From Eledone cirrhosa (taxonomy: Eukaryota), in NCBI GenBank assembly GCA_964016885.1, contig OZ024749.1, positions 50,840,001-50,904,000 of the forward strand: DNA of 64,000 nt. Direction: 5' to 3'. Below are positions 5,192 to 62,956 of the stretch, one piece after another (positions within the stretch are counted from its first letter, which is position 1; each line of letters starts with the position of its first letter). The notes beneath the pieces were generated by a model. That model searched no databases, was not told where the DNA came from, and saw only the letters and a list, made by a program, of their open reading frames with translations. The translations under genes and the position numbers were made by a program.

Positions 5192-5401
5192 AATAATAAA
5201 TTTGAAGACTATAATCCAAAGAGGGCTGGATAAGGATAAATATATATCAAATATATAAGAACCGTAGAGCAAATATTTATTAAAATAAGAGATTAAAGTG
5301 TAAGCAAAGAATCGCTGCTTTCACCCTTAAGGGGATCTTCTGAAGATCCCGTTAAGGGTGAAAGCAGCGATTCTTTGCTTAAACTTTAATCTGTTATTTT
5401 A

Positions 5402-5409
<8 letters not shown>
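5187..5409 (-). mobile_element. Family A fold-back HHR element in (TA)n
   Basis: Hairpin 5273-5409 centred on 5341. The + strand reads CTGAAGA tccc gttaa ggg t GAAA gca..tgc TT aaact. Homologous to 11567-11893 and 44437-44550. Confidence 0.8.
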
Positions 5410-7746: not shown

Positions 7747-8499
7747 ACTTTCACAATATTCCCGATTGTCTCTCTCTGAGCATCCACATGCAAATTGTGT
7801 ATTCTACAAATATTTTCTTTTAATATTAGAATATAAATATCATGATATATACATAGTTCTGCTTAACGTATCTTGATTTCGGAGAATAAATATCTCGATC
7901 TTCATTACTTGTTTTCGTTATACATCCAATATTTGCATAAGATCTACAGTATGATATTTTCATCCACTTATTACATATAAGCTGCGTTTATATAAGTATG
8001 TACTTGACATTTATATTTAAAAACACATAACGTTTACATTCAGTATTTGCGGGGATATAAAGAGAGAACCAATAGATTGAAACATGGTGGAATTCCATCA
8101 ACAGAAATGTAATCGACGTCTTATGAGACTATTATTACTTAACACTTAAACTAATCTAACGTGCTGATTGTATATATTGCATATACGTCATGCTTCTAAG
8201 AGAGCATGACACATAAGCAATATTTACAATAAGCACGTTAGATTTATTTAAGTGTTAAATAATAATAGTCTCATAAGCCGTCGATTACATTTAGGCGAAT
8301 AGAATATTCGTTTTATAAAAATATCCTGTTGAACCAAGCTTTACCATGACAACACTAAACAATTAACTGTTCATATGCGTAAGCCCATACATACAGGTTT
8401 ACCTTCACACTCACAGGGTATTTTGAGGATCCCGTGAATGCGCAGGTGAACTCCAGGTTAATAAGTCTGTTCTTAGCCATAATACATAGATACATACAT

Positions 8500-11566: not shown

Positions 11567-11885
11567 GTAATAATAATAAATGTGAACACCAAAATCCAAA
11601 GATGCCTCGATAAGGATAAATATATATCAAATATATAAGAACCATAGAGCAAATATTTATTAAAATAACAGATTAAAGTTTAAGCAAAGAATCGCTGCTT
11701 TCACCCTTAACGGGATCTTCTGAAACTAACAAAGTCAATCTGTAAATGCAGAAGTGCATATTTCAAAAAACGTTGCAACGTTTTTTGAAATATCCACTTC
11801 TGCATTTACAGATTGACTTTGTTAGTTTCAGAAGATCCCGTTAAGGGTGAAAGCAGCGATTCTTTGCTTAAACCCTAATCTGTTA

Positions 11886-11893
<8 letters not shown>
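11567..11893 (-). mobile_element. Family A fold-back HHR element in (TA)n
   Basis: 118-bp arms 11658-11893 centred on CGTTGCAACG. Each arm has agttt-CAGAAGA-stem II-GAAA-stem III; the stem I partner is aaact in the left arm and aaacc in the right arm. Confidence 0.85.
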
Positions 11894-11925
<32 letters not shown>

Positions 11926-20567: not shown

Positions 20568-20678
20568 CATAAATATATACATATATATGTATATATACAT
20601 ACATATATATATATACATATGTATATATACATACATATATATATATACATATATATATACATATGTATATATACATAC

Positions 20679-20763
<85 letters not shown>

Positions 20764-20772
20764 CATATATAG

Positions 20773-20914
<142 letters not shown>

Positions 20915-20933
20915 GTATATATAATATATATAC

Positions 20934-21114
<181 letters not shown>

Positions 21115-21115
21115 C

Positions 21116-21166
<51 letters not shown>

Positions 21167-21176
21167 TATATACATC

Positions 21177-21247
<71 letters not shown>

Positions 21248-21248
<1 letters not shown>

Positions 21249-21746
21249 AATAAATAATTTATACAATTATCAAAGTTGTGTCCAAATCATTTAATAGCTG
21301 ACGATCGTTTCTTCCAAACTCTCGTTTGGTTTCATCGGAGTGTTATCAATATTTGCACATATAATTACCCTCCTATTTAACTGAACAATTATATAGATAC
21401 ATATAAATTGATGTTGTGAGCAACAGTTTCGTATTTACAGGGTGGATGTATGTGACATATATTTTACGAGAATTGTACAATAATTGTACAAACATTTAAG
21501 TTCAAATTCAAATCAAAGTTAATATTAAAATCAAAATCAAAATCTAAAGCACGGAGTGGAATACATGCAGCAGTTAAAACACAACTTTGATAATTGTATA
21601 ATTTATTTATTTAACTGCTTTGTAAAACAACTGATGTTCATAGATTGAGCTATTTTCCTTACTGGTAATAAGGTAATTAAGAAATTACTGACCTTCCTGT
21701 TTATAGTTGCTTATACTATATACATAACTATAAACATATTATTATT
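21248..21746. mobile_element. Family G element between (TA)n tracts with degenerate HHR (21295-21343, - strand)
   Basis: Minus strand: CCGATGA aa CCAAAC gaga GTTTGG aa GAA ACGATCGT C ag. 21248-21276 is an inverted copy of ~21579-21612. The 3' part is homologous to ~10280-10540. Confidence 0.7.
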
Positions 21747-21751
21747 ATGTG

Positions 21752-21831
<80 letters not shown>

Positions 21832-21851
21832 TATATATATATATATATATA

Positions 21852-21896
<45 letters not shown>

Positions 21897-21907
21897 CTAT
21901 ATGTATC

Positions 21908-21964
<57 letters not shown>

Positions 21965-21971
21965 CTATATG

Positions 21972-22002
<31 letters not shown>

Positions 22003-22037
22003 GTATCTATATGTATATATATATATGTATCTATATG

Positions 22038-22260
<223 letters not shown>

Positions 22261-22298
22261 GTATGTATATATATATATACTATATATATATATATATG

Positions 22299-22431
<133 letters not shown>

Positions 22432-23382: not shown

Positions 23383-23750
23383 GAAGTAATTCCATCGGAA
23401 AAGTCCAGGAAAAAAGAGTGCTCTATGTAAGCAACAGAGCTTAATTATTATTATTATGTAATAAACAACATAAGGCAATTATTCCATTTACCAGTGGTTT
23501 CTTAAAAGCAAAAGGTTTTGCTTTCAATCCTCAGAATGAAAAATCCTGGTTTGTTTATTGAATATGGATTCTAAAAACGAAAATGCAATCTATATGAAAG
23601 TGAGGCTGGAAAAGGGAGAAGGAAAGGAAAAATAAAATAAAATAAAACTACACATGCAAACACACACAAAAAAACCCAAAAGCATACTTACACACACACA
23701 CATATATACACATATAATTTGCACGCATACACATATACACATACACATAC

Positions 23751-26751: not shown

Positions 26752-26893
26752 TAAATAAGTGGACACTATATTTATAAAACCATATTTATTCTATTATATA
26801 TATTTCAAGGGTACACTTTCATCAGATAAAATAGCCTTGAAATATATAAAATAGAATAAATATGGTTTTATAAATATAGTTTCCATTTATTTA
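26752..26893. mobile_element. Family C fold-back element with minimal HHR core (26803-26825, - strand)
   Basis: Imperfect inverted arms around ~26811-26834. Minus strand reads CTGATGA aagtgtaccctt GAAAtatata. The tail taaatatggttttataaatatagtttccattt recurs at ~28995 and ~55335. Confidence 0.72.
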
Positions 26894-27300
26894 ATATCAG
26901 TGAATATTATACTCCCGAAAAACACACATTTTATTTGATTATTTTATTTTGTTCCTTTACCATTTTATTCCTTCTACCAATTTATTATTTTTTTGAGCTG
27001 ACTACAACACCAACTCCACTAGCAACATAAGAGTAGAGGTCAGATGTACTTAACAATAACAAGAACAACCACTAGAGATTGCCTCGCCTCAGAACGAATT
27101 TCTATAAACTTTTGACTGAGGAATGTTCTCAAAACTGACCAATGAGAGGAGAAGATGTCCTTTACGCTGAAATTCGTTTGTTTAAATTCATATGATTCCT
27201 CAGTGAAACAACAAACCAACCAGGAACTGGGCATTTCAGGATATTGACAAAGTTAAACACCTCAACAACGGATGTACTCATCTCTACCACACTAATTTGG

Positions 27301-27355
27301 ACTGCCTGAAGAGGTCACAGCCAAATATGGCTGTCATCGAAATATATATAGCAGT
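27301..27355 (+). ncRNA. Type I hammerhead ribozyme, family E non-palindromic copy (~27215-27390)
   Basis: actgc CTGAAGA ggtcacagcca aata tggctgtcatc GAA ATATATAT A gcagt; flanks are diverged homologues of 55575-55740. Confidence 0.88.
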
Positions 27356-27396
27356 AATAAACGAAGCCAAATTTTAAACATTCGACATATATATTT

Positions 27397-27493
<97 letters not shown>

Positions 27494-29184: not shown

Positions 29185-29381
29185 CGAAGGAAATGTTGTA
29201 AGGAACCAGGTGGACCATAACGCACCAAAGTACTCAATACTTAGTGTAGTAGAGTGGGTAATAGGAACGAGTAGGACCCCGACGGCTGAGCTCAAGCCGT
29301 CTCGACGGCTATTTCTGGACTAATTTAGACCAGAATTAGCCTTCGAAACGGCCTAAGCTCAGCCGTCGGGGTCCTACTCGT

Positions 29382-29387
<6 letters not shown>
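29183..29387 (-). mobile_element. Family D fold-back element with half-HHR
   Basis: Hairpin 29261-29387. The right arm has cctt cGAAA CGGC ctaagctca GCCG TC (stem III plus GUC). Tail homologous to 12275-12370. Confidence 0.75.
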
Positions 29388-33204: not shown

Positions 33205-33272
<68 letters not shown>

Positions 33273-33278
<6 letters not shown>

Positions 33279-33804
33279 GAGATCAAAAGATGGTTAAAGG
33301 AGTTCCATGTATTTTATTATGCGCATTTCAAAAACAAACATCATCATGCAATAATATTTGTGTTTTCATCAGATAAAACAGGAGAACATGATATGAAGGC
33401 TAAAACACACTTGTGGATAGTGCAGTTTTAAATCAACATATGAAAAGTGGTTTTAGATTGATGTGTGATATTGGGAAAAATATTTTATTTAGAGAGGGGG
33501 CTAAATAAAATATTTTTCCCAATATCACACATCAATCTAAAACCACTTTTCATATGTTGATTTAAAACTGCACTATCCACAAGTGTTTTTTAGCCTTCAT
33601 ATCATGTTCTCCTGTTTTATCTGATGAAAACACAAATATTATTGCATGATGATGTTTGTTTTTGAAATGCGCATAATAAAATACATGGAACTCCTTTAAC
33701 CATCTTTTGATCTTATATTATGTATACTCCAGTCCTACAAACTGTAGAGTGCTTCTTATCCGATATCTGCATTGCTTTATTGTACTACAATAAAACTCAC
33801 CTCC

Positions 33805-33808
<4 letters not shown>
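33273..33808 (+). mobile_element. Family B fold-back HHR element (220-bp arms, 8-nt loop, 3' tail extension)
   Basis: Arms 33273-33492 and 33501-33720 with ~2 mismatches, unique tail to 33808, (TA)n on both sides. Confidence 0.9.
33615..33681 (+). ncRNA. Type I hammerhead ribozyme (mirror copy on - strand at 33312-33378)
   Basis: ttttat CTGATGA [stem II] GAA ATGCGCAT A ataaaa: stem I ttttat/ataaaa, palindromic stem III, AUA cleavage triplet. Confidence 0.85.
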
Positions 33809-35215: not shown

Positions 35216-35247
<32 letters not shown>

Positions 35248-35257
<10 letters not shown>

Positions 35258-35409
35258 AGATCAAAAGATGGTTAAATGAGTTCCATGTATTTTATTATTT
35301 AACCATCTTTTGATCTCATATATTATGTATACTCCAGTCCTACAAACTGTAGAGTGCTTCTTATCCGATATCTGCATTGCTTTATTGTACTACAATAAAA
35401 CTCACCTCC

Positions 35410-55117: not shown

Positions 55118-55229
55118 GTGTGTATACATATGTATATATTTATGTATATATATATGTACATATATATATATGTATATGTATGTATATATATATGCAAAAG
55201 TTCTATCCGACAGTAATGGTTGCATTTTT

Positions 55230-55376
55230 TAAGGGTATGTCAATATTTATTTATAAAACTGATCTATATTGTATTTTGTATGATGAAAGCACACCATAAT
55301 TTAACGTGGTGTCCTTGAAATATGTATAATAACATAAATATGGTTTTATAAATATAGTTTCCATTTGTTAATATCG
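55230..55376 (+). mobile_element. Family C copy with degenerate HHR (55280-55320)
   Basis: aTGATGA aag cacaccat..gtggtgt cctt GAAAtatgtata, followed by the family C tail. Confidence 0.65.
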
Positions 55377-55392
55377 TATATATATATATATA

Positions 55393-55854
55393 TAAAATAA
55401 AGTTAAATAAAAGTCAAATGATTAAAATTTAGCTTCGTTTATTACTGCTATATATATTTCAGTGACAGCCATCTTTGGCTGTGACCTCTTCAGGCAGTTT
55501 GAATTAGTATGGTATAGACAAGTACATATGTTGTTTAGGTGTATGATATTGTCAATACTCTGATATGCCCAGCAAGGAACTGGGCATATCAGAGTATTGA
55601 CAATATCATACACCTAAACAACATATGTACTTGTCTATACCATACTAATTCAAACTGCCTGAAGAGGTCACAGCCAAAGATGGCTGTCACTGAAATATAT
55701 ATAGCAGTAATAAACGAAGCTAAATTTTAATCATTTGACTTTTATTTAACTTTATTTTACACTACTCCGGAGTAACCAAACCAACCTGCGCACTTCGTCG
55801 AGTGCTCCAGCCTGCATACTGAGGTGTTGGTATACAACCAACATAAACTCAAAA

Positions 55855-55855
<1 letters not shown>
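55393..55855 (+). mobile_element. Family E fold-back HHR element (180-bp arms, 7-nt loop, tail)
   Basis: Arms 55393-55572 and 55580-55759 appear perfect; mirrored ORFs 55422..55613(-) and 55539..55730(+) confirm this. (TA)n flanks. Confidence 0.9.
55654..55708 (+). ncRNA. Type I hammerhead ribozyme (mirror copy on - strand at 55444-55498)
   Basis: actgc CTGAAGA ggtcacagcca aaga tggctgtcact GAA ATATATAT A gcagt. Confidence 0.9.
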
Positions 55856-55887
<32 letters not shown>

Positions 55888-56027: not shown

Positions 56028-56396
56028 TCTTGGGAGTTGATGGTCAGTCGTACTGTCCATGCTTGGTGAGATATAGTATTGTGACCTGTAAAAACTAACA
56101 CTCTTACATCCCCTCTGGCTTTCGGCTGACTGCCACAGGCGGGACGGGTAGCAGTAAACTATGGTACAGGCCTAAATGGGTCATTGTTTGGCTGAGAGGC
56201 CGAACTGACTAAGCGAATTTCGTTGAAATCTCGGTAGCTAATGGTCAACTTCCTTCGGACATACGCCTACGCACACCGGTTGGGTGAATTGGTACTCACA
56301 GGGGAACGGATGAAGAACCGAAAAGCACACACTTCGTCCGTTCCCATGTCGCTTCAACTTGGAATGCCTCGGAAACATAACCTTATTATGTAACAA

Positions 56397-56470
56397 GCTG
56401 CCTGATGATGTCACGACCCACGCACACAGAACAGTGTGGCCAGTGTCTTCATTGAAATATATATCACAGC
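56397..56470 (+). ncRNA. Type I hammerhead ribozyme motif
   Basis: gctgc CTGATGA tg..catt GAA ATATATAT C acagc. Confidence 0.7.
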
Positions 56471-56532
56471 ATTATTATTAAAGGACTATAAAGGACATCT
56501 GAAACTACTTCACTTTTACTTATTCGATTCTC

Positions 56533-56571: not shown

Positions 56572-57079
56572 GACGTAAAATAAGAAAATTATAAAAATTT
56601 ACCTACTTACTAAAATTTCACTCCAACTAATTAGTTTCTGAAAGGGAATAAACATGGTTTCCGATTGGAACTACATGAAGAAATATCCTTTCGTCATCAG
56701 GGAGATCTGTTCTCACCTAAGTTCCCAGGCAAAGCGTGGACACAAGGAACTTATACAAAAATAATTCAGTGGATGGAAAAAAGCAAGCGAGGACTAGATT
56801 CCAGGACATTGAACAAATCACTGCCTACTTAGTCGGTGGCGAATTCAAAAGAATCAATCACGTGACATCGAGGTCAATCAGTGAGGAGTGAGGGTGCTAA
56901 TAAGACAGTGGCCTGGCTATTACTATGAAGCATAGCAGTAGTGTTGGCAAATTCTTGCTCAACAAAATAATTTGGAGATAATTATAAAGAATTATTATAT
57001 CTACCAACATATATATACAGATGTATACCTATTCTAGCATCGGTATACATCTGTATATATATGTTGGTAGATATACTAA

Positions 57080-57087
<8 letters not shown>
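56568..57087 (-). mobile_element. Family F element with HHR (56620-56705, - strand) and terminal fold-back (~56985-57087)
   Basis: Minus strand: ctcc CTGATGA cgaaagg..cctttca GAAACTAATTAGTT ggag. Hairpin tatctaccaacatatatatacagatgtatacc / ggtatacatctgtatatatatgttggtagata. Confidence 0.82.
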
Positions 57088-57132
<45 letters not shown>

Positions 57133-57136
<4 letters not shown>

Positions 57137-57350
57137 GGAGGTGAGTGTTATTGTAGTACAATAAAGCAATGCAGATATCGGATGTTGATTTAAAACTGAA
57201 CTATCCACAAGTGTTTTTTAAACTTCATATCATGTCTTCCTGTTTTATCTGATGAAAACACAAATATTATTGCATGATGATATTTGTTTTTGAAATGCGC
57301 ATAATAAAATACATGGAACTCTTTTAACCATCTTTTGTTCTTATATATTA
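57133..57350 (+). mobile_element. Family B copy: inverted tail (57133-57183) joined to an HHR segment (HHR 57243-57309)
   Basis: ttttat CTGATGA..GAAATGCGCATAataaaa, nearly identical to the 33.6-kb copy. Confidence 0.85.
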
Positions 57351-57498
57351 TATATATACATATAAATTTAGCGAGAATCGCATTTCGGCGGGCATAAATT
57401 ACCGAAACGCAACTTTCATATTGTGCAGACAAGCGCTCCATGGATATGAAGAAGATACCAGAGCTATAAACGTAAGTTAAAATGGTAACGCTGAGACG

Positions 57499-58176: not shown

Positions 58177-59509
58177 ATATTGTTATACTTGGGGAGGGTC
58201 ATATTTGTGTAATATTGCCAGAATTAATAACAGAACACACTCACTGTTTGGTTGGTTTTCGCTTCTCGCTGTCTTTTATATCTGCGATCTAACTTACTCG
58301 GTCCTCATGTTGCCATTGACTGACCGACGGTCAAAAATAATACAGATACAATATAGACACAAACACATATATATAGTTTACATAATTTACATAAATATTG
58401 CACATCTGCAACATCGTCAGTGGTGTTATATTTTTTCCTCCTGTTGTGTTGTATGTATATGCCATTTTTTATTCAGGCTGTCTATATATTTATTTATTTA
58501 TTTGCTTGTTTGTTTATTTTATTTTGTCTTCTTTGCGCATGCGTTTGCGTGTGTGTATAGTGTTATGTTTGCTGTGTGACTAGTGTGTATAGTGTTGTGT
58601 CTGCTGGGTGACTAGTGTGTGTTTATGTGCTTGTTGTTATTGTGCTTGCTATTTATCTTATTTTGTTGTTATTTATCTTATTTTATTTTATTTTATTTTA
58701 TTATTTATACTTCTCTTAGGTTAGTGTTGTTTGTTTGGGTGTTGTTGTTGTTCCACTCATTCTTTCTGTTTAGCTTTGGTCTTCTAATTTCTATTTCACT
58801 GGCCTCTCTGATTTGCCTATCTGCTGGGTCATTCCTATGTTTAGATATTCTAATTTCTATGTTGTCTATGTTACCGTCATGTTGTTGTTAGATATTATTC
58901 TAATTTCTATGTTGTCTATGTTACCGTCATGTTGTTGTCTAGCTTGTTCGTATAGTACTGACCCGTTTTTTCGTCCTTTTAGTTCCCCCCGGTGATGGTC
59001 TACCCTTTCACCTATGCTACGAGCTGTCTCACCTATGTATGTTGTTGTCATGTTTCTGCAAGTACCCTCTGTACATCTTATGCTATAGACTACGTTTCTA
59101 GTTTTACAGTTTATCCGAGGGTTCACCTTACATATGATATATTTCCTATTAGTACAGTGGGTTTTCTTAAAAGGGTAGGTTTTGCTGATCAGGGATTTTA
59201 TGGTGGTTCCTGGCTTTTCTACCACCTTTATTTTTAAGTGGGTCTTTCTCGGGGCCTTTCTACACTGGTTAGCTAATTTCCCTCCAGGGGCGGCGTCCAC
59301 ACACATGACACTCTGATATCTCTGGTTGTCGTACCATGATGTGGCCTTCCCTATCTTATGTCTAGCCCTATCTAAGCTATTCCATGATTTGCTCCTGTAT
59401 AATGGGCAAATTCCTTTCATGTCTAGTTCTATGAGGGTCTTATACTTCTCCATGGCTCCTTCGTATACTCTGACTCTGTCTGTTGGTTGTAGCCAGAGAA
59501 CTGCATGCG
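58177..59509 (-). repeat. Inverted duplicate arm of the PLE (RT thumb, GIY-YIG, 3' UTR)
   Basis: ORF 58866..59603(-) repeats the DRVRVYEGAME...YIGETARS peptide of ORF 60083..60787(+). Near identity continues through the UTR. This arm has a private ~50-bp tandem duplication at ~58840-58935. Confidence 0.95.
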
Positions 59510-59510
59510 T

Positions 59511-60886
59511 TAAAGAAAAATGGTCGCACATGCAATAGGGGCTAGTATCAAAACTACCATAAAGGGCCACATATTTAAGTTCAATGAGAAAATCTACACC
59601 CAAAATGAGGGAGCAGCCATCGGCGTCAGCATAGCTGGTGATGTTGCGAACCTTTTTATGGTATGGTGGGAAAGGAGACTTAAAGATCTCCTTAATGAAA
59701 GCTTCATAGACCTCATCATGTACTCTCGTTATGTAGACGATATCAATATAGTTATAAGAACACCCCCACTAGAGAGCACTAACAAGTTTGATTTAGAACG
59801 TAGCACGATGGAAAGCATCCAGCAGATAGCTAATTCGATACACCAGAGTATAACTGTAACTATCGACTTCCCTTCCAAACACCCTAACAATAGACTACCT
59901 GTATTAGACACAGAACTCTGGATTAACACTATAGACGAGAGAGCCCAAATTCTCCACTCAAACTATGCTAAACCCATGGCCTCCAAATACCTGATACTCA
60001 ATAACTCAGCAATGTCCAGTAGTGCTAAGTTTAATATTCTGATCGCAGATTTGGTACGAGTGATGAAGAATGTGTCCAGCATGTGCGACCCAACAGAAAT
60101 GGAAAGACACATCCAACACTTATCAACCGCATGCAGTTCTCTGGCTACAACCAAAGAGACAGAGTCAGAGTATACGAAGGAGCCATGGAGAAGTATAAGA
60201 CCCTCATAGAACTGGACATGAAAGGAATTTGCCCATTATACAGGAGCAAATCATGGAATAGCTTAGATAGGGATAGACATAAGATAGGGAAGGCCACAGC
60301 ATGGTACGACAACCAGAGATATCAGAGTGTCATGTTTGTGGACGCCACCCCTGGAGGGAAATTAGCTAACCAGTGTAGAAAGGCCCTGAGAAAGACCCAC
60401 TTAAAAATAAAGGTGGTAGAAAAGCCAGGAACCACCATAAAATCCCTGATCAGCAAAACCTACCCTTTTAAGAAAACACACTGTACTAATAGGAAATGTA
60501 TCATATGTAAGGTGAACCCTCGGATAAACTGTAAAACTAGAAACGTAGTCTATAGCATAAGATGTACAGAGAGTACTTGCAGAAACATGACAACAACATA
60601 CATAGGTGAGACAGCTCGTAGCATAGGTGAAAGGATAGACCAACACTGGGGGGAACTAAAAGGACAAAAAAACGGGTCAGTACTATACGAACATGCTAGA
60701 CAAAAACATGACGGTAACATAGACAACATAGAAATTAGAATAATATCTAAACATAGGAATGACCCAGCAGATAGGCAAATCAGATAGGCCAGTGAAATAG
60801 AAATTAGAAGACCAAAGCTAAACAGAAAGAATGAGTGGAACAACAACAACACCCAAACAAACAACACTGACCTAAGAGAAGTATAA
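59511..60886 (+). pseudogene. PLE reverse transcriptase (C-terminal part) plus GIY-YIG endonuclease, disrupted by a 1-nt frameshift (~60120) and an in-frame TAG (60785-60787)
   Basis: RT motifs QNEGAAIGVSIAGDVANLFM, YSRYVDD and LPVLD. Linker FVDATPGGKLA..KIKVVEKPG..IKSLISKTYPF and Cys cluster CTNRKCIIC. GIY-YIG CKTRNVVYSIRC..C..YIGETARSIGER. Reading through the TAG gives ..ASEIEIRRPKLNRKNEW.. to TAA at 60884-60886. Confidence 0.93.
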
Positions 60887-61159
60887 ATAATAAAATAAAA
60901 TAAAATAAAATAAGATAAATAAATACATACGCAAGCACAATAACAACAAGCACATAAACACACACTAGTCACCCAGCAGACACAACACTATACACACTAG
61001 TCACACAGCAAACATAACATTATACACACGCGCAAACGCATGCGCAAAGAAGACAACATAAAATAAACAAACAAGCAAATAAATAACTAAATATATAGAC
61101 AGACTGAATAAAAAATGGCGTAGACATACAACACGACAGGAGGAAAAAATATAACACCA

Positions 61160-61187
61160 CTGACGATGTTGCAGATGTGCAACGAAA
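61160..61187 (+). ncRNA. Hammerhead ribozyme-like core in the PLE 3' tail
   Basis: CTGACGA t GTTGCA gatg TGCAAC GAAA; stem II perfect, stems I and III weak. Confidence 0.65.
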
Positions 61188-62956
61188 GATTTATGTAAAT
61201 TATGTAAACTATATATATGTGTTTGTGTCTATATTGTATCTGTATTATTTTTGACCGTCGGTCAGTCAATGGCAACATTGAGGACCGAGTAAGTTAGATC
61301 GCAGATATAAAAGACAGCGAGAAGCGAAAACCAACCAAACAGTGAGTGTGTTCTGTTATTAATTCTGGCAATATTACACAAATATGACCCTCCCCAAGTA
61401 TAACAATATATATATATATATATATATATACATACTTTCTTACATAAATATTCATGATGTTATATGGCTGTATGTATGCAAGTGTTTCTATTATAATTAT
61501 ATATTCCCATTATTTAGATGGTCTAATAGATAATAAGATAATGAGTATATGAGTTAAACGATTCGTTTAGACGTAGGTATTAATAATGTATTTATATGAA
61601 ATTAATGGAGTTGCTCTTTCATCTTGATTCAAATGACGTTTCTATGGGTAATGGTTTCTAAAGAAAGTAAGAAACTCTGGGTCAAATATACATGATGGAT
61701 ATTATATTATCAAACATTAAGAAATATATAGTAATGGCCATTTTATCAAAATAATATAATGATATGCATGCAGTTATATGTGTATGTATTTATGTATGTG
61801 CGTTTAGTTGTGTGTGCGCGCGAATGTATGTGTGTATGTGTACACTGAATGAAATTGGTAATCAGAAAATATAGTCGATGTTAAATAATCATATATAACG
61901 TTTGTAGTTACCCTGTCTCTACTTTACTTTTGTATAAAATTATACGAACATATCTATATACTTCTACAAAATCCCTTAAGTCAGGACGATAATCCATTAT
62001 ATTTGTAAGTTTGTTAGTCAAGGCTGATTAGAAAACGAGACACCGTACCTACCAGGAAGCTGTTGAAAAACTTGTCCTAATCCTTACATCTTATAAATTA
62101 CCCTATGAGGACAAACAGACAATTTGAATCAGTTGTATCGATGGAAAGATGGCATATAATTCTCAACCAGAGGCACATTTTATAAATAACCTTCTCTATT
62201 ATATACATACGATGAGGAAGATCATATGATTTCGACGTCAGCTGTCTAGTTAATAAACTAAGAAAAATCCAGCTGATCTAATGGATATTGTGAGTTATAT
62301 AACACAGATGGCTGCAGAAATAAAACATTTCGTCTGACATCATTATAATTCCGAAGAATACCACGAAGTAACGAAAAATGTATAGGATATGAAGAGATAA
62401 AAAAATAAATTTAATGAAAAAAAAAAAGAAATGTATAAAATAAAGCATCAACAAGCAAATATATCAACACATATAACAACTCATTTATTTTAGTCGGCTC
62501 AAATCCGTAGACTTGTTTGAAGGAGAGACAGGGTCCGCAAACAATGCATTGAATAATATATTTAATAGTATAGAAGTTACAGCATAATGTTCAGAACAAT
62601 ATGTTATCAGAAAATCTATTCATTATCGGAATATTATACCTGTATCTCTTGTTCAATGAAGGCTGTTTTAAATTGTATACGATTCCATAGAGAAAATGCC
62701 AGCTGCCATGAAATGCAATTTGTAATCATGGCAGGTATGATTATATCAGTTTAGAGCTGAAAATAGAATTATAATTTCATTCATGGATAAATACAGAGAA
62801 GATCCAATTAATTAACTACAAAGAGCAGTGACTATAACAGTGAGTGGCGAGTCACAAGAGAGATGATGAAGTAACTATTCAACAGTTAAAAAGACGAAAT
62901 TCAGTGAGAGCTAATGATATGTTTAAAGTAACACCTTTAAAGTACATATGTACAAG

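Follow-up and report, generated by a model that had tools for sequence, protein, structure and literature searches.

A young head-to-head double copy of a Penelope-like element 3' end with a hammerhead motif on each strand in an octopod genome

Introduction

What is a perfect hairpin that carries a hammerhead ribozyme motif on each strand, and how did it come to lie in the genome of the octopod Eledone cirrhosa? The locus belongs to a 64-kb stretch of contig OZ024749.1 (hereafter the window), and a sequence-only reading of that stretch had proposed either an RNA that cleaves itself in both polarities or a ribozyme shut off in double-stranded RNA (dsRNA), whose identical arms pointed to recent insertion or gene conversion. 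We consider it highly probable that two copies of one sequence, the 3' end of a Penelope-like element (PLE) bearing Hydra-clade motifs, lie here head to head as a young, non-coding insertion in a (TA)n tract, likely produced by reverse transcription primed on both target strands.

Results

Anatomy of the insertion

The hairpin consists of two arms of 180 nt (55393-55572 and 55580-55759) which are 100% complementary, as the sequence-only reading had described them, and which enclose a 7-nt loop. The extent given there, 55393..55759, is right for the hairpin but leaves out a 97-bp tail of the same insertion, present on one arm only (55760-55856). The whole insertion spans 55393-55856 and has (TA)n on either side, a tract in which a target-site duplication is not readable. 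The loop and the 5-bp stem that closes it are native element sequence of the tailed arm, and in long copies of the element the sequence of the tail continues to the leader of an ORF. The features are as follows.

55377..55392, no strand: (TA)n tract, left part of the target, read from the sequence
55393..55572, minus strand: untailed arm, a pLTR corresponding to the 5'-truncated 3' end of the Penelope-like element; its terminus 1 borders (TA)n
55444..55498, minus strand: hammerhead motif identical to that on the plus strand; predicted cut after 55449
55568-55572: 5-nt microhomology where the tailed and untailed arms overlap
55568..55759, plus strand: pLTR part of the tailed arm, including the 7-nt loop, from comparison with the element sequence
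55654..55708, plus strand: hammerhead motif, minimal type I; predicted cut after 55703
55760..55856, plus strand: tail of 97 bp, on a single arm; its terminus 2 borders (TA)n
55857..55884, no strand: (TA)n tract, right part of the target, read from the sequence

Each arm has a hammerhead because the motif sits 56-105 nt inside terminus 1 of the end that was copied. The left flank (55195-55376) belongs to a different repeat family, of which it is the 3' end, and its hammerhead core has decayed. That family is frequent as hairpins at other loci and is also found at 26752-26893; the young element sits in the (TA)n end of this repeat. A tblastn search of the 64-kb window with the ORF of the element found no coding remnant of the same family.

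The parent element

The anatomy had been recognised from the sequence, but the element from which the hairpin derives had been missed. In exact pattern matches against the 3.0-Gb genome, on which all our genome counts are based, a 24-mer of the motif was found 3,984 times. Each copy in the loci that we fetched ends either at terminus 1, straight into (TA)n, or at terminus 2, 97 nt beyond. The untailed end occurs at 1,432 sites and the pLTR-to-tail junction at 1,755, and at 54 places the tail continues to the leader and ORF. Forty of these 54 long copies were fetched. In many of them the motif stands 186 nt before the tail-ORF junction and again approximately 3.9-4.0 kb downstream; a partial-tandem pLTR carrying the hammerhead was found in many of these 40 loci and also in L032, L036 and L037. 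The unit is approximately 4.1 kb long, with a 1.3-kb 3' region and a long low-complexity stretch before the EN domain.

A single long locus of the 40 (L118) has an uninterrupted ORF, of 892 aa, and its 3' end differs from the tailed arm of the window by 1 mismatch in 289 nt (99.65% identity). The ORF contains YRDD, RWK at residue 37, DKT at 120, CxCx5C at 752, CxxC at 850 and CxH at 878, with just one cysteine between the GIY- and YIG-like motifs, where the cysteine pair is thus absent. Searched whole against Pfam and PDB, the 892-aa ORF gave no significant match; its C-terminal piece matched GIY-YIG with an E value of 6e-4, below the curated cut-off, and a homolog 36% identical to it (P0024) matched RVT_1 with an E value of 2e-7. 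Named homologs are from Argonauta and Octopus. The arms are thus linked to a single RT plus GIY-YIG ORF, the defining trait of EN+ Penelope-like elements.

The diagnostic features of the Hydra clade, as listed in the available text of PMC8557442, are RWK, DKT in place of DKG, a CxCx5C linker, CxxC and CxH near the end, a C-terminal EN without CCHH and without a cysteine pair between GIY and YIG, and (TA)n targeting. The L118 ORF has each of these protein features (RWK, DKT, CxCx5C, CxxC, CxH and a C-terminal EN lacking CCHH and the cysteine pair), and the end contexts of 39 loci are nearly all TA-rich runs, which corresponds to the (TA)n insertion of this clade. The published length of Hydra elements, below 3 kb, is descriptive rather than diagnostic and is exceeded here. 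The hairpin arms represent the 3' end of a Penelope-like retrotransposon of 4.1 kb whose motifs are those of the Hydra clade; its clade placement derives from these motifs and from a comparison by eye to Hydra-1_Obim rather than from a tree. The Neptune clade, suggested by the cysteine linker, was rejected in favour of Hydra on RWK, DKT, CxCx5C and the missing cysteine pair.

The protein of Hydra-1_Obim from Octopus bimaculoides (Craig et al. 2021, PMC8557442) resembles that of the window family motif for motif by eye, but its hammerhead sequence differs, and thousands of young copies, the 892-aa ORF and the 1.3-kb 3' region set the window family apart. By these motifs it is of the same clade as Hydra-1_Obim but a different family. 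With Hydra elements as described in PMC8557442 it shares the (TA)n target and a hammerhead near the 3' end, and it is unlike them in its unit of approximately 4.1 kb versus less than 3 kb and in its tail of 97 bp versus 30-40 bp. An octopus repeat annotation reports recently active Penelope-like families, with neither hammerheads nor Hydra mentioned in its accessible part (PMC13282606).

Two unusual arrangements involve the same family. At L033:1072-5171 the element forms a 4-kb near-perfect palindrome (96.8%) with arms of approximately 2 kb each, and at L038/L039 (G000:C1:30831.6-30840.9 kb) a 468-bp unit in a near-perfect tandem array, with an internal inversion, is flanked by two convergent untailed ends of the family.

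Identity and age of the arms

Arms were compared at 39 loci picked as two-armed, including the locus in the window and 11 from a search for a junction hotspot (see below). They diverge by 0.89% within a locus versus 1.71% between loci, and at 18 of the 39 loci they are identical. Minority variants common to both arms number 55, compared with 10.1+/-3.9 (maximum 26) in 2,000 shuffled pairings of the 39 loci. Over the 175 bases compared, 21 arms from 12 other loci match the arm in the window without a difference. Given this similarity within loci, the shared variants and the identity to arms elsewhere, both arms of an insertion derive from a single source at its birth, and the window holds a young copy. 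The recent insertion proposed earlier therefore agrees with the identical arms elsewhere and with the single mismatch to the long copy, and gene conversion is needless as a cause of arm identity, since the arms were alike from birth. Ten of the 55 shared variants are private to one locus and could have come from later arm-to-arm copying.

The two-armed insertion is the usual form of the family

The pairing of a tailed with an untailed end, head to head, is the standard insertion form of this family. We sampled the 71 loci that hold the first 100 matches listed of the 3,984 (one further match, L017, was omitted). Tailed and untailed outer ends stand head to head at 40 of the 71 and two untailed ends at none; two other loci are ambiguous, and approximately 29 have one clear arm or run off the locus. 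The matches listed in the first 171 Mb of contig 1 comprise 89 untailed and 99 tailed ends, and head-to-head neighbours within 5 kb among them (n = 49) are tailed plus untailed in 45 cases, tailed plus tailed in four and untailed plus untailed in none; two of the four are internal tandem junctions in L036 and L037. From the 3,984 motif matches, many of them paired, we infer some two thousand similar insertions in the genome, among which this locus would be ordinary.

An assembly artefact, produced by a fold-back chimeric read, is an extremely improbable source of the hairpin. The arms are perfectly identical, and in four DNA-type runs, which contain pieces of the family and both termini, no record spans this loop, although these short contigs and RAD reads are not expected to span it. 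Folding back of a read would not end at terminus 1 with precisely the tail missing, and the same asymmetry is present in 45 of 49 pairs among the ends listed and at many two-armed loci with diverged arms.

Could the hairpin instead be a non-autonomous unit that propagates itself and moves whole, such as a MITE or fold-back-like DNA element or a hairpin retrozyme? One perfectly palindromic junction, centred on a native 8-bp palindrome, is indeed common to 210 loci (210 exact genomic copies), as such a unit would predict. However, head-to-head junctions vary widely between loci, and the 29-mer that spans the junction in the window occurs only once in the 3.0-Gb genome. Moreover, a MITE would be the same unit everywhere, with symmetric ends and a fixed target-site duplication, whereas these ends are asymmetric, with a tail on one side; in long copies the arms are continuous with the RT-EN ORF, and among the 71 loci there were no tandem arrays like those of non-LTR retrozymes. 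At this locus such a unit is very unlikely and largely refuted.

An inverted, 5'-truncated pLTR with a one-sided tail is the textbook arrangement of PLEs (PMC8557442, Fig. 2), and this is what the locus displays. Like the PLE insertions described in the available parts of PMC8557442 and PMC3846280, it has an inverted copy, a short overlap or palindrome at the junction and a tail at one end; it is unlike them in that its arms are too short for any ORF, leaving a bare hairpin, and in that its tail measures 97 bp, compared with the published 30-40 bp.

The window contains further inverted structures. A second, unrelated family at 33267-33806 has the same anatomy: its hairpin arms match at approximately 97%, both strands bear a type I hammerhead (33310-33380, minus; 33613-33683, plus), one arm has an 80-bp tail, and (TA)n lies on either side; further copies lie at 35229-35405 and 57141-57370. 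Short hairpins occur at 5273-5409, 11653-11898, 29261-29387, 8105-8292 and 56983-57088, the first two being of one common family, which is extended on one side and ends in (TA)n. An inverted pair of approximately 1.3 kb (58177-61409, 92-93%) surrounds pieces of an RT-like ORF (RVT_1 E 0.002, 59514-60206) and is probably another Penelope-like insertion; the inverted pair of 750 bp at 20569-22331 resembles it.

Proposed priming on both target strands

For the insertion in the window, we propose that the RT/GIY-YIG protein of the element would cut both strands of the (TA)n tract, one of which would prime cDNA synthesis at a first site on the RNA and the other at a second. Both strands would use uncleaved RNA of one source as template, probably even a single molecule. 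The two cDNAs would stop early, their 3' ends would join by the 5-nt microhomology at 55568-55572, and repair would fill in the remainder. The hammerheads would be passengers at this locus: a read-through transcript of either strand would fold into a duplex of 180 bp and, instead of cleaving itself, would serve as a substrate for dsRNA enzymes.

The main alternative, which we regard as unlikely, keeps the same element but has a single priming: the tailed cDNA would have stopped past the native 5-bp stem, folded back and copied itself as far as terminus 1. Self-priming of this kind was proposed earlier for palindromic head-to-head junctions (PMC3846280), and the junction in the window, taken alone, is compatible either with fold-back on the native 5-bp stem and 7-nt loop of the tailed arm or with two primings. 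Arm lengths were tabulated for 62 of the 71 loci, nine complex or cut-off loci being dropped, which yielded 37 simple pairs. In 21 of them the untailed arm exceeds the tailed one in length, in six the tailed arm is longer, and ten have arms of equal length, where 3.6 are expected (outside the hotspot, 4/31 versus 0.5). Such an excess of equal arms is predicted by fold-back, but equally by run-off at a shared 5' end of the RNA. Likewise, the 210 exact copies of the junction on the native 8-bp palindrome are what fold-back would leave, but this hotspot, which accounts for 32 of the 99 inner ends of arms (318-325 nt from terminus 2), also ends arms whose partner ends elsewhere. In addition, eight of the 37 pairs have a tailed arm of at most 99 nt, consisting of a piece of the tail only and sharing essentially no sequence with the other arm. 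Fold-back cannot yield the 21 pairs with a longer untailed arm or the eight with a tail-only arm, whereas two primings yield all of them, and it also requires an unexplained exact stop at terminus 1. Between the two mechanisms, the copy statistics favour that in which each target strand primes at its own start site on the RNA.

No inner end of an arm lies within 5 nt of the predicted cut (0/99). Since no arms begin there, the hammerhead does not appear to be needed to make the template. Matches that lack the G of GAAA just upstream number 215, and one of the 30 inspected starts at the predicted cut; this search pattern overlooks any arm whose junction with its partner falls at the cut. At L026, L049, L050, L051, L074, L088, L090 and L094, terminus 2 is followed by a few (CT) repeats before the (TA)n, which suggests slippage at priming.

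Two-strand priming has a biochemical parallel, reported in the available text of a study of an anole PLE: in vitro, its protein cuts and extends both target strands, two internal start sites on the RNA bound the tail, and uncleaved RNA is the main template (PMC11167929). Priming on both strands from two such start sites fits the pairing of tailed with untailed ends, the arms that consist of tail alone and the variants common to both arms. Our literature search, with most subscription papers outside its coverage, found no two-strand-priming model of head-to-head PLE insertions.

A broader scheme is conceivable, and we offer it tentatively. Insertion in the Hydra clade might be an obligatory two-ended priming, in which the protein, as a dimer, cleaves (TA)n and reverse-transcribes a single uncleaved RNA from two starts 97 nt apart, with most insertions born as hairpins; the end shared by many arms, approximately 320 nt from the end of the tail, might then show where a short RNA derived from the pLTR, and mobilised in the manner of a SINE, has its 5' end.

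The hammerhead motif and its predicted behaviour

Both strands match a descriptor for type I hammerheads (a stem I of 5 bp, then CUGAAGA, stem II, GAAA and the AUA triplet) at 55654-55708 (plus) and 55498-55444 (minus), and the descriptor places the cuts where the earlier reading had them, after 55703 and after 55449. The window contains eight such matches, compared with a mean of 0.005 (maximum 1) in 200 block-wise dinucleotide shuffles, and the motif is therefore not due to chance. An Rfam search found no hammerhead, either at the gathering score or at E<=10, and returned only sub-threshold matches to miRNA hairpins.

The description of the ribozymes as intact and complete holds for the core bases, all of which are present (C3-U4-G5-A6-N7-G8-A9, G12-A13-A14, A15.1-U16.1 and NUH), but not for the stable stem III and the G10.1-C11.1 pair that are canonical in monomeric hammerheads. 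Stem III has 2 bp on a self-complementary 8-nt AU run, with a predicted pair probability of 0.13-0.15 in the monomer, and a G·U stands at 10.1-11.1, where G-C is usual and is what a sister subfamily has. An older sister copy of the arm lies in the window at 27216-27403 (84% identical, untailed end into (TA)n), with C at 11.1. On the other hand, the motif has the palindromic 15.1-16.1 segment, short helix I and long helix II of minimal, dimer-type PLE hammerheads, and its sequence identifies it as one of these, with an unstable palindromic stem III and a G·U at 10.1-11.1.

Metazoan PLEs carry minimal type I hammerheads (Cervera and de la Pena 2014, PMC4209133) that likewise have a 5-bp helix I, a long helix II and a palindromic, unstable helix III, and in neither case is a loop-loop contact evident. 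The motif in the window, of a young subfamily, differs from them by its G·U in place of the highly conserved G10.1-C11.1, and its best fold is without the extra base after A9. Further hammerhead-like motifs from other repeat families lie in or near the flanks, at 56395-56480 (recognised by eye and then folded), 56621-56704 and 23482-23541.

In the predicted monomer, the active fold (-11.6 kcal/mol) lies approximately 4 kcal/mol above the minimum free energy fold (-15.7). A swapped dimer is predicted at -35.8 kcal/mol, although an alternative dimer fold is lower (-42.8), and within a single arm the predicted probability is 0.86 for stem II and 0.14 for stem I. Transcription from either strand yields one sense motif and its perfect antisense, as had been noted, with the antisense arm transcribed first in both cases. 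The full read-through transcript is predicted to fold at -331 (plus) or -338 (minus) kcal/mol, far below the -15.7 of the motif, with a stem I probability of about 1e-56. On read-through of the locus the motif is thus predicted to be sequestered in dsRNA, the shut-off which had been put forward as the second possibility.

The first possibility, a purpose-built RNA that cleaves itself in both polarities, finds no support here; the two motifs are one retrotransposon end copied twice. Bidirectional self-cleaving RNA from this locus is unlikely on these folding models, because the duplex would sequester the motif and because minimal PLE hammerheads cleave poorly in vitro, with zero cleavage reported for monomers and low cleavage for dimers in the accessible parts of PMC4209133 and PMC6765202. 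Cleavage of the anole PLE hammerhead in vitro is assisted by protein (PMC11167929). It follows that failure of a single arm to cleave, suggested earlier as a refutation, would be a weak one, since for PLE motifs of this type the monomer shows no cleavage in vitro (PMC4209133) or the protein of the element is required (PMC11167929).

That the hairpin is a host device kept by selection, whether as a bidirectional self-cleaving RNA, an antisense-switched ribozyme or an exapted siRNA or editing substrate, is highly improbable. The core bases are intact on both strands and the differences in stem II between subfamilies preserve pairing (G·U, G-C), but this conservation of the stem mirrors selection on the mobile family and not on the locus. 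The copy, identical to many others, is too young to show selection, its motif would be sequestered in read-through RNA, and the same anatomy recurs in the unrelated family at 33267-33806 of the window.

Discussion

Hammerheads on both strands are known from other systems. Viroid and satellite RNAs with hammerheads of two polarities, and non-LTR retrozymes, resemble the locus in having type I motifs, one per strand. However, the motifs in the window are one sequence duplicated in inverted orientation, unlike the complementary-strand ribozymes of a replicating viroid or satellite RNA, and they do not form part of a tandem unit. Non-LTR retrozymes are defined, in the available part of a 2026 preprint, by head-to-tail tandem type I units, whereas the arms here are head to head.

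Closer relatives are found among PLEs. Schistosoma PLEs have dual minimal motifs 100-700 bp apart on opposite strands (PMC4209133), and published examples exist both of hammerhead pairs on opposite strands and of inverted pLTRs tailed at one end (PMC4209133, PMC8557442). With Poseidon of Anolis (PAc; Frangieh et al. 2024, PMC11167929) the window family shares an AT-rich target and would share two RT starts that bound the tail, extension on both strands and an uncleaved template. PAc belongs to another clade, and its start sites lie inside the ORF, compared with upstream of the ORF in the window family; in the accessible text of that study the two starts are not linked to head-to-head insertions.

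The locus is useful as evidence on how Penelope-like elements make inverted ends and one-sided tails, a matter called unresolved in PMC8557442, and the copy statistics are a modest, testable lead on the insertion of such elements. If two-ended priming is true, the reaction would have left thousands of dated records in the genome, which would also be seeded with templates for perfect dsRNA. Octopods edit their RNA heavily. Were hairpins such as the one described here transcribed, this octopod genome would gain many perfect dsRNAs.
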